The position numbers were made by a program, and so were the translations under genes. The notes beneath the pieces were generated by a model that worked only from the letters and a program-made list of their open reading frames with translations, made no database searches and was not told the DNA's origin. Positions 22,870 to 24,000 of a stretch of DNA of 24,000 bases are shown here, in pieces (position 1 is the stretch's first letter; each line of letters begins with the position of its first letter). Origin of the DNA: Leptolyngbyaceae cyanobacterium (GTDB lineage Bacteria; Cyanobacteriota; Cyanobacteriia; Phormidesmidales; Phormidesmidaceae); assembly GCA_050043365.1 (NCBI GenBank), contig JBHJIP010000110.1:10012-34011 (forward strand). Reading direction: 5' to 3'.

Positions 22870-23886
22870 ATGGCGACAAAATTTCCGAAATTTAGTCAGG
22901 ATTTGCAGCGAGATCCGACCACTCGCCGCATCTTTTATGCGATCGCCACAGCCCATGACTTTGAGAGTCACGATGGGATGACGGAGGAAAATCTGTATCA
23001 GCGGATTTTTGCCTCCCACTTTGGTCATCTCGCCATTATCTTTTTGTGGATATCTGGCATCTTGTTTCATGTGGCTTGGCAAGGCAACTTTGAACAGTGG
23101 ATTCAAGATCCGCTGAATACTAGACCCATTGCCCATGCCATTTGGGATGCCCAATTTGGCCCAGCGGTGATCGAAGCTTACACCCAAGCCGGAGCCCGGA
23201 ATCCGGTCGATATTTGCTACTCCGGGGTGTATCACTGGTGGTACACCATCGGTATGCGCACCAACACTGACTTGTTTGTGGGTTCGCTATTTTTGCTGCT
23301 GCTGGCCAGCGTCATGCTCTATGCCGGGTGGCTGCACCTGCAACCTAAGTTCCGGCCTAGTTTGGCCTGGTTCAAGAATGCTGAATCACGGCTGAACCAC
23401 CACCTGGCCGGTCTCTTTGGGGTCAGTGCCCTGGCGTGGACAGGGCACTTGGTGCATGTGGCGATTCCCGAATCGCGGGGGCAGCATGTCGGGTGGGATA
23501 ACTTCCTTGCTGTGCGTCCCCATCCAGAAGGACTGACGCCCTTCTTTACCGGCAACTGGGGGGCCTATGCCCAAAATCCCGATACGGTAGACCATCTCTT
23601 TAACACGAGTCAGGGGGCGGGCACCGCCATTCTCACCTTTTTGGGGGGCTTTCATCCCCAGACGGAATCCCTCTGGCTGACGGACATGGCCCATCACCAT
23701 CTGGCGATCGCCGTCATCTTTATTATTGCCGGTCACATGTACCGCACCGTTTTTGGCATTGGCCACAATATTAAAGAAATGACCGAAGCCCTCCAGGGTC
23801 CAGGTTCGAGTGGCTTTTTCATCGCTCCGAATACGGGACGCGGTCACAAAGGTATCTATGACACACGACTTGGCAAACTTCAGTGA
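22870..23886 (+). pseudogene. psaB2: Photosystem I P700 apoprotein A2 far-red paralog, 5' ~45% only; the frame leaves PsaB homology after ...GHKGIYDT (~23865) and stops at 23886
   Basis: The ORF starts [44 protein letters not shown] and contains [23 protein letters not shown]. After codon ~332, canonical PsaB continues [10 protein letters not shown]. Here the sequence reads RLGKLQ*, and no other frame resumes PsaB-like sequence before the window ends. Confidence 0.75.
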
Positions 23887-23910
23887 GAGGAAAATAAATA
23901 AGGAGTTGAG

Positions 23911-24000
23911 TTGTGTATTTCAGATAGGCATCATCACCTCCACGACTTGCTCAACCGATTGGCCTTGCTCAAAGAGAGCATTAGCCAACTGCAACATTGC
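23911..24000 (+). CDS. 5' end of an unidentified ORF within the sequence interrupting psaB2 (runs off the window)
   Basis: AGGAG at 23901-23905 is followed 5 nt later by TTG. An open frame of 30 codons (LCISDRHHHLHDLLNRLALLKESISQLQHC...) runs to the window edge, with an in-frame TAA just upstream. Its identity is unknown. Confidence 0.3.
   Translation, partial: MCISDRHHHLHDLLNRLALLKESISQLQHC

Follow-up and report, generated by a model that had tools for sequence, protein, structure and literature searches.

Inactivation of a gene by an insertion sequence (IS) is a routine event. Genes of heterocyst-forming cyanobacteria are also interrupted by elements of another kind, the nifD, fdxN, and hupL elements, which are 9-60 kb long, encode a site-specific recombinase of the tyrosine or serine type (XisA/XisC/XisF), and are kept at the same site across species. 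Among the IS, IS701 has been described as an 'emerging family' split from IS4 (De Palmenaer et al. 2008, PMC2266710). Its members are 1,400-1,550 bp long, with terminal inverted repeats and one ORF, and in almost all of them the target duplication is 'exactly four bps' (PMC2266710). The YREK motif is incomplete in most IS701 members, usually without the Tyr, and the published consensus of the ends is ---YACT-Y--YR (PMC2266710).

Here we describe psaB2, a far-red-light paralog of psaB, in the genome of a Leptolyngbyaceae cyanobacterium. The window, i.e. the whole stretch of 24,000 nt that was analysed, ends inside an IS701-like element which, with a probability of about 0.93, entered the psaB2 gene of the FaRLiP cluster by transposition, duplicated the target TATGACA, and cut the gene in two. 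Nine of the closest reference loci possess an uninterrupted psaB2 of 742-743 aa across the insertion site. Unlike these far-red psaB2 loci, all of them continuous, the gene described here is cut after codon 332 of about 743.

Far-red gene cluster and the break in psaB2

In the window, psaB2 follows psaA2, with PsaA encoded directly upstream, and a chlF-like psbA paralog of 403 aa. The window encodes three Photo_RC paralogs (359, 352, and 403 aa), two PSII proteins of the CP47/CP43 type, an ApcE-like linker of 802 aa, four phycobilisome proteins, and PsbO-like and PsbV-like proteins. Apart from psaB2, the genes of the far-red cluster that lie in the window have intact ORFs. The PsaB2 sequence reconstructed from both sides of the insert, as described below, is 91-93% identical to full-length PsaB2 proteins of 743 aa, and the truncated protein falls in one 90% cluster with the protein of Halomicronema hongdechloris. 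Similar to far-red PsaB, the reconstruction has its best matches in the PDB with the FRL-PSI of H. hongdechloris (6KMX chain aB, 1163 bits) and with Synechococcus sp. PCC 7335 (7S3D_B, 1123 bits), followed by the Thermosynechococcus PsaB (1JB0_B, 1042 bits) and 6KMW_aB (1019 bits). We take 6KMX and 7S3D to be far-red PSI and 6KMW to be white-light PSI. Because of the structure matches, the shared 90% cluster, and the neighbouring paralogous PSII and allophycocyanin genes, the gene was assigned to the far-red paralog psaB2. The host is a Leptolyngbyaceae/Halomicronema-like cyanobacterium with a FaRLiP cluster.

At the edge of the far-red cluster, positions 532-1914 (+) encode a protein of 460 aa whose N-terminal part is a TIR domain (TIR_2, 3.4e-27), and a YccF-like membrane protein is encoded next, at 2345-2740. 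The TIR protein may have a role in defence. Contig L027 (MAG SRP072547_co1_397) encodes a related PsaB of the far-red type (86% identity), and the project of this contig is listed as Lake Alchichica microbialites (preprint 10.1101/2025.02.22.639630).

The 5' portion of psaB2, recognised with Pfam PsaA_PsaB on the called gene, occupies positions 22870-23863 (+) and comprises codons 1-331 and the first base of codon 332. The truncated ORF, as called and translated, extends over 22870-23886 (+) and encodes 338 aa, with the stop codon at 23884-23886. PsaB homology ends at Thr332, after which the IS-encoded tail at 23864-23886 (+) reads RLGKLQ and stop; the RLGKL read-through was also found on L003, a contig with a complete copy of the element. 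The last psaB2 base is 23863, and the IS starts at 23864. Codon 332 (ACA) takes its first base from psaB2 and the other two from the IS; Thr is kept by chance, and the intact gene has ACC at this position. Two further contigs, L001 and L002 (coverage ~9x), encode exactly the 338-aa protein, and both end at window position 23917, 54 nt beyond the break, which is how an assembler with k=55 stops at the edge of a repeat.

Translation of 23860-24000 revealed that PsaB-like sequence is not resumed in any of the three forward frames, and the GC content is 0.44 in the tail versus 0.54 in the psaB2 part. The first-pass annotation had reported the interruption after codon ~332 with RLGKLQ and the stop at 23884-23886, the lack of a forward frame resuming PsaB, and an AT-rich tail, all in agreement with these results. 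In what it gave as the missing continuation it was mistaken: it expected the canonical PsaB sequence, and the far-red paralog has instead a 14-residue far-red signature after the break, which is common to the reconstruction and to the H. hongdechloris and Nodosilinea proteins.

The insertion sequence and its copies

The insert is an insertion sequence of 1,504 bp that begins at 23864 and has the ends CACGAC…GTCGTG. The window holds its first 137 nt (23864-24000, element on the minus strand). They form the end farther from the start of the transposase, and the remainder lies past the window. All of these positions (137/137) agree with the complete element on L007 and other contigs, read in reverse complement. 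The complete insert is visible on L003 (1,640 nt), the sole contig matched by a 36-mer from deeper in the tail, which in the orientation of the window begins at 23863. A repeat search on L003 detected terminal arms of 17 nt, 100% complementary and spaced 1,472 nt. In the window, the terminal inverted repeat is CACGACTTGGCAAACT, with 16 nt at 23864-23879, or 17 nt with the flanking A at 23863. The conserved terminal core CACGAC…GTCGTG was set by comparison with diverged relatives, and the next base outward varies. Delimitation as a 1,506-bp element with a 5-bp duplication was considered and rejected, as the outermost base varies among relatives and the copy on L004 would need a terminal mutation.

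The single long ORF of the element on L003 encodes 449 aa on the strand opposite to psaB2. Its 3' end is located in the window at 23920-24000 (-), where the minus-frame translation gives the last 26 codons, …AMLQLANALFEQGQSVEQVVEVMMPI, and the stop at 23922-23920, corresponding to the C-terminus of the 449-aa ORF. The transposase gene is antisense to psaB2 and converges on it. The first-pass annotation had described an SD-preceded, TTG-initiated frame as a new ORF opened by the inserted sequence. Such a frame (LCISDRHHH…) is present at 23911-24000 (+) and continues beyond the window, but the gene of the element is the transposase on the opposite strand. In the full element, as seen on L003, the TTG frame measures 70 aa and is wholly antisense to the transposase C-terminus, and relatives do not keep it: stop codons interrupt its counterpart in the 73%-identical relative L103, and the 84% relative L097 has no ATG, GTG, or TTG start at the corresponding position. 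The 70-aa frame is probably not a gene.

Among the NCBIfam models, IS701 (NF033540) is the best match of the 449-aa ORF, with 1.3e-32 and 113.5 bits, which is under the 150-bit cutoff. Pfam DDE_Tnp_1 was detected above its cutoff (2.5e-6), and transposase relatives 72-74% identical carry PF13546 DDE_5. The search for transposase homologs revealed 1,585 proteins, mostly on contigs of ~1.5 kb. The transposase P0001, with 448 aa, bears the NCBI label 'MAG: transposase [Leptolyngbyaceae cyanobacterium]', and the identical 448-aa protein is encoded on ten short contigs (<=5 kb); its database entry gives 49 kb for the longest contig and includes NCBI among the sources. An exact 50-mer from inside the element had 0 matches in the reference genomes scanned, which is probably explained by small repeat contigs being left out of MAG bins.

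Near-identical copies of the element were found at 6-8 unrelated sites in the same samples, with five distinct left and six distinct right flanks. The sites include the 3' end of a histidine kinase gene, and positions upstream of a trypsin-like protease, downstream of a Uma2 gene, and upstream of petM. Across the 1,504 bp, a single SNP is the only difference among nine contig copies, an identity that is partly consensus, as short-read assemblies collapse repeats. Because near-identical copies occupy several unrelated sites, the element must have been recently active, and we infer that the insertion into psaB2 is a recent event. On L003 (12-161 (+)) and L006 (285-1280), the element lies at the extreme 3' end of the histidine-kinase (HATPase_c) gene, where the last codons are replaced by an IS-encoded RLGKL… read-through, as in psaB2.

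Matched flanks carry direct repeats of 7 bp, namely GTGGGTA on L004 and TATGGAA on L007, and in the relative L103 (25.8-kb contig) the repeat, also of 7 bp, is TAGCCTA. The relative represented by L097-L102 (84%; WANG22-1 / SRR6869055 samples) is ~1,463 bp long and has the same CACGACTTGGCAAAG ends, with apparent 6-bp duplications, ACTGAC and CAAAAA, deduced by pairing flanks across contigs. In this IS group, duplications may be either 6 or 7 bp long.

The far junction and alternative explanations

The 3' portion of psaB2 was located on another metagenome contig, L005, on the far side of the element. The left copy of the target-site duplication, TATGACA, occupies 23857-23863 in the window, and on L005 these seven bases recur next to the opposite end of the element. 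There the left flank terminates in TGTCATA, which is window 23857-23863 in reverse complement; its other strand reads TATGACA-CC TAC AAC AAC TCA CTG CAC TTT…, corresponding to Y-N-N-S-L-H-F. This right copy, outside the window, stands directly before …CCTACAACAACTCACTGCAC. The 3' junction comes from the scaffold of a different sample, itself mis-joined on its other side.

After removal of the element and of one TATGACA, the psaB2 of the window and the L005 flank form a continuous PsaB2 frame, and the reconstructed intact junction reads …GGTATCTATGACACCTACAACAAC…, also given as …GGTATCTATGACACCTACAACAACTCACTG…. The restored frame is open through all 205 further codons available, which represent 205 of the ~411 C-terminal codons, and lesions further 3' are possible. 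The N-terminal and C-terminal halves are 92% and 96% identical, respectively, to one full-length PsaB2 (P0121), and both align without gaps to the 743-aa H. hongdechloris protein.

Mis-joins are frequent in the contigs around the element: flanks that do not match are combined in L005, L006/L008, and L007/L009, and sequences of different species in L014, so that psaB2 might have been wrongly joined to an unrelated repeat by the assembly, the real gene being intact. Nonetheless, at least four assemblies (the window, L001, L002, and L014) share the junction between psaB2 and the IS, and the opposite junction was found independently on L005, with the exact 7-bp duplication and the frame precisely restored. 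A target-site duplication is not expected from a chance mis-join, and the protein collection contained no full-length PsaB more than 93% identical to the gene of the window. The insertion is considered real because misassembly cannot yield a matching target duplication together with precise restoration of the frame, and an assembly chimera is accordingly very improbable.

With regard to the mis-joined contigs, L005 joins the psaB2 3' flank to the flank of the trypsin-like protease, and one histidine-kinase flank is joined to two different right flanks. Such non-matching flanks are either assembler mis-joins or IS-mediated rearrangements. P0250 (226 aa, ENA, 987-nt contig) is an N-terminal fragment of PsaB2 ending in …DRKSTRLNSSHRCISYAVFCLKKKKKKKK…, a tail that has no relation to PsaB and resembles an artefact of sequencing or assembly joined to the gene.

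The cluster of the truncated protein contains a second 338-aa protein, P0242, which is 97% identical and has the same RLGKLQ tail and stop. An old insertion common to diverged lineages was considered for P0242 and rejected, since its contig L014 (ERZ4903326 NODE_9957, P0242 at 6049-7152, 3x coverage) is chimeric. Compared with the window, L014 differs by 14% in psaA2 (85.6% nucleotide identity), by 25% in chlF, and by ~10% in psaB2 nt 1-585. Its identity to the window is 100% between psaB2 nt 586 and the 31st nt of the IS, and beyond the IS stretch it returns in register to a different psaB allele. Judged by this mosaic of identities, L014 is a cross-organism assembly chimera, and it reveals a second far-red-capable cyanobacterium in these samples.

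The insertion could also be real but represent a minority or polymorphic allele, with an intact psaB2 of the same strain co-existing and far-red PSI kept at the population level. The data are metagenomic, unfixed recent insertions are expected from an active element with near-identical copies at 6-8 sites, and the in-register tail of L014 is an uninterrupted psaB2 of a related organism in at least one sample. However, that intact sequence belongs to a different organism, as the nucleotide identity in psaA2 indicates, and L001 and L002 run 54 nt into the element and do not stop at the junction, so that a competing intact path seems to be lacking in those assemblies. An intact protein more than 93% identical was found neither in the collection of 5.8 billion proteins nor among the cluster members read. 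The search with the C-terminal half alone retrieved only unrelated fragments (<=84% identity) and neither a 3' fragment nor an intact allele, and the ChlF look-up gave just the IS-ending contig and a 1.4-kb fragment, with nothing past 24000. The entry of L001 and L002 into the element, and the search for an intact PsaB above 93%, which found none, suggest that the interrupted allele dominates the sampled population, and we regard a minority allele as unlikely.

The least probable explanation, which we hold to be hardly credible, is that of a functional intervening sequence or split gene, i.e. an intron, an intein, a developmentally excised element, or separately expressed halves of PsaB2. Both halves of psaB2 are open and undecayed, and a GTG that arises at the IS end, in the frame of the 3' half, was used by the gene caller on L005. 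The intervening DNA is nevertheless a typical IS, with inverted repeats, a DDE transposase, a target duplication, and copies at unrelated loci, and it encodes no site-specific recombinase. The insert starts with CACGAC, lacking an intron-like start, and reaches an in-frame stop after six codons; neither the GUGYG and reverse-transcriptase/maturase ORF of a group II intron nor the in-frame fusion and splicing motifs of an intein were found. Among the relatives, psaB2 is continuous in 9/9, and the apparent conserved insertion in a diverged lineage (P0242) is the assembly artefact described above. Further, by the helix positions of PSI structures, the break would fall where transmembrane helix e begins, rather than at the boundary of the antenna and core domains.

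Misassembly, intron, intein, and programmed-split readings are rejected in favour of IS transposition into psaB2. The first-pass annotation had likewise preferred an IS insertion, which is now borne out by the complete element, its inverted repeats, the transposase, the duplication on both sides, and the recovered 3' portion of psaB2. Its lower ranking of misassembly fits with the junction in four assemblies and the two-sided duplication, and that of an intron, intein, or split gene with the DDE transposase, the in-frame stop, and the continuous psaB2 of relatives. It had proposed looking for the remaining psaB2 codons, flanking direct repeats, and terminal inverted repeats; the codons were found on L005 next to TATGACA with the frame restored, the direct repeat is TATGACA on both sides, and the inverted repeats are perfect arms of 16 nt.

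Predicted consequences of the insertion and comparison with known elements

Staggered cleavage of the target during DDE transposition would have duplicated the 7 bp TATGACA, and the element would have been inserted with its transposase gene antisense to psaB2. Translation of psaB2 is predicted to run six codons into the inverted repeat and then stop, giving the 338-aa product. This product is without ~411 residues, from the presumed start of helix e onward, including the FX cysteine loop at residue ~567. Since the FX loop and everything after the break are missing, PsaB2 function is presumably lost, and no far-red PSI containing PsaB2 would be made. A defect in far-red PSI can soundly be inferred from the sequence. 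In the reference locus L016, psaB2 is followed by psaL2, psaI2, psaF2, psaJ2, and a large response regulator, as recognised by motifs in this one listed locus. The expression of the downstream psaL2-psaI2-psaF2-psaJ2 genes is probably reduced by polarity.

Contig L090 encodes a PsaB of the white-light type at 6001-8217, which is 80% identical to the reconstruction and has different residues at the signature. L090 belongs to the MAG 'uncultured Halomicronema sp. SRR3401481_bin.65' and is a contig of assembly ERZ1740060, which is shared with L002. The PsaB of L090 is probably the product of the host's white-light psaB1, the membership of the window contig in this bin being presumed, and a white-light psaB1 would explain why the loss of psaB2 is tolerated.

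The locus is an ordinary IS knockout of psaB2 and not a new kind of split gene. A search of the literature on FaRLiP, psaB2, and transposase yielded a single, unrelated match and no description of a psaB2 disrupted by an IS. For annotation, the locus should be described as a psaB2 pseudogene disrupted by an IS, with the transposase on the minus strand, and the public 338-aa 'PsaB' proteins P0241 and P0242 as truncation and chimera products. The organism is a candidate natural psaB2 knockout with an otherwise intact FaRLiP cluster and could be informative if cultured. For catalogues of mobile elements, the locus adds a recently active cyanobacterial IS701-like element with a 7-bp duplication, versus the 4 bp usual in the family.

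It is improbable that the interrupted allele is fixed in a wild population in which all other far-red genes (chlF, far-red PSII, far-red allophycocyanin, and psaA2) are intact. If so, the organism would be a natural PsaB2-null strain, and far-red acclimation would be useful without a dedicated far-red PsaB, e.g. through PsaA2/PsaB1 hybrids or far-red PSII alone. Alternatively, insertion of the IS and its precise excision would act as a reversible on/off switch for far-red PSI.

Similar to the nifD, fdxN, and hupL elements, foreign DNA interrupts here a cyanobacterial gene whose function is conditionally needed. Unlike them, the insert is a DDE IS of 1.5 kb that has identical copies at unrelated sites and that the psaB2 of every relative lacks. 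The element is not an intron, an intein, or an excision element of the Xis type.

The closer comparison is with IS701. The 1,504 bp of the element are within the range of the family, the terminal inverted repeats are perfect, and the single ORF (448/449 aa) encodes a DDE transposase with its best profile match to NF033540. By inspection only, the C-terminal motif WSYRWPCEIFHEFTKE corresponds to R-x3-E-x6-K without the canonical Tyr of Y-x2-R, and in …TWSYRWPCEIFHEFTKE…, inspected unaligned, R-x3-E-x6-K is seen with W at the position of Y-x2-R. In contrast to IS701, the duplication is 7 bp (6-7 bp in close relatives) and not 4 bp, and counting the flanking A/T as part of the IS still leaves 5 bp. 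The profile score is under the NCBIfam cutoff, and the ends agree with the published consensus at ACT only. Because of the sub-threshold profile score and the 7-bp duplication, the element is best described, from its sequence, as IS701-like and not as a certified member of IS701.
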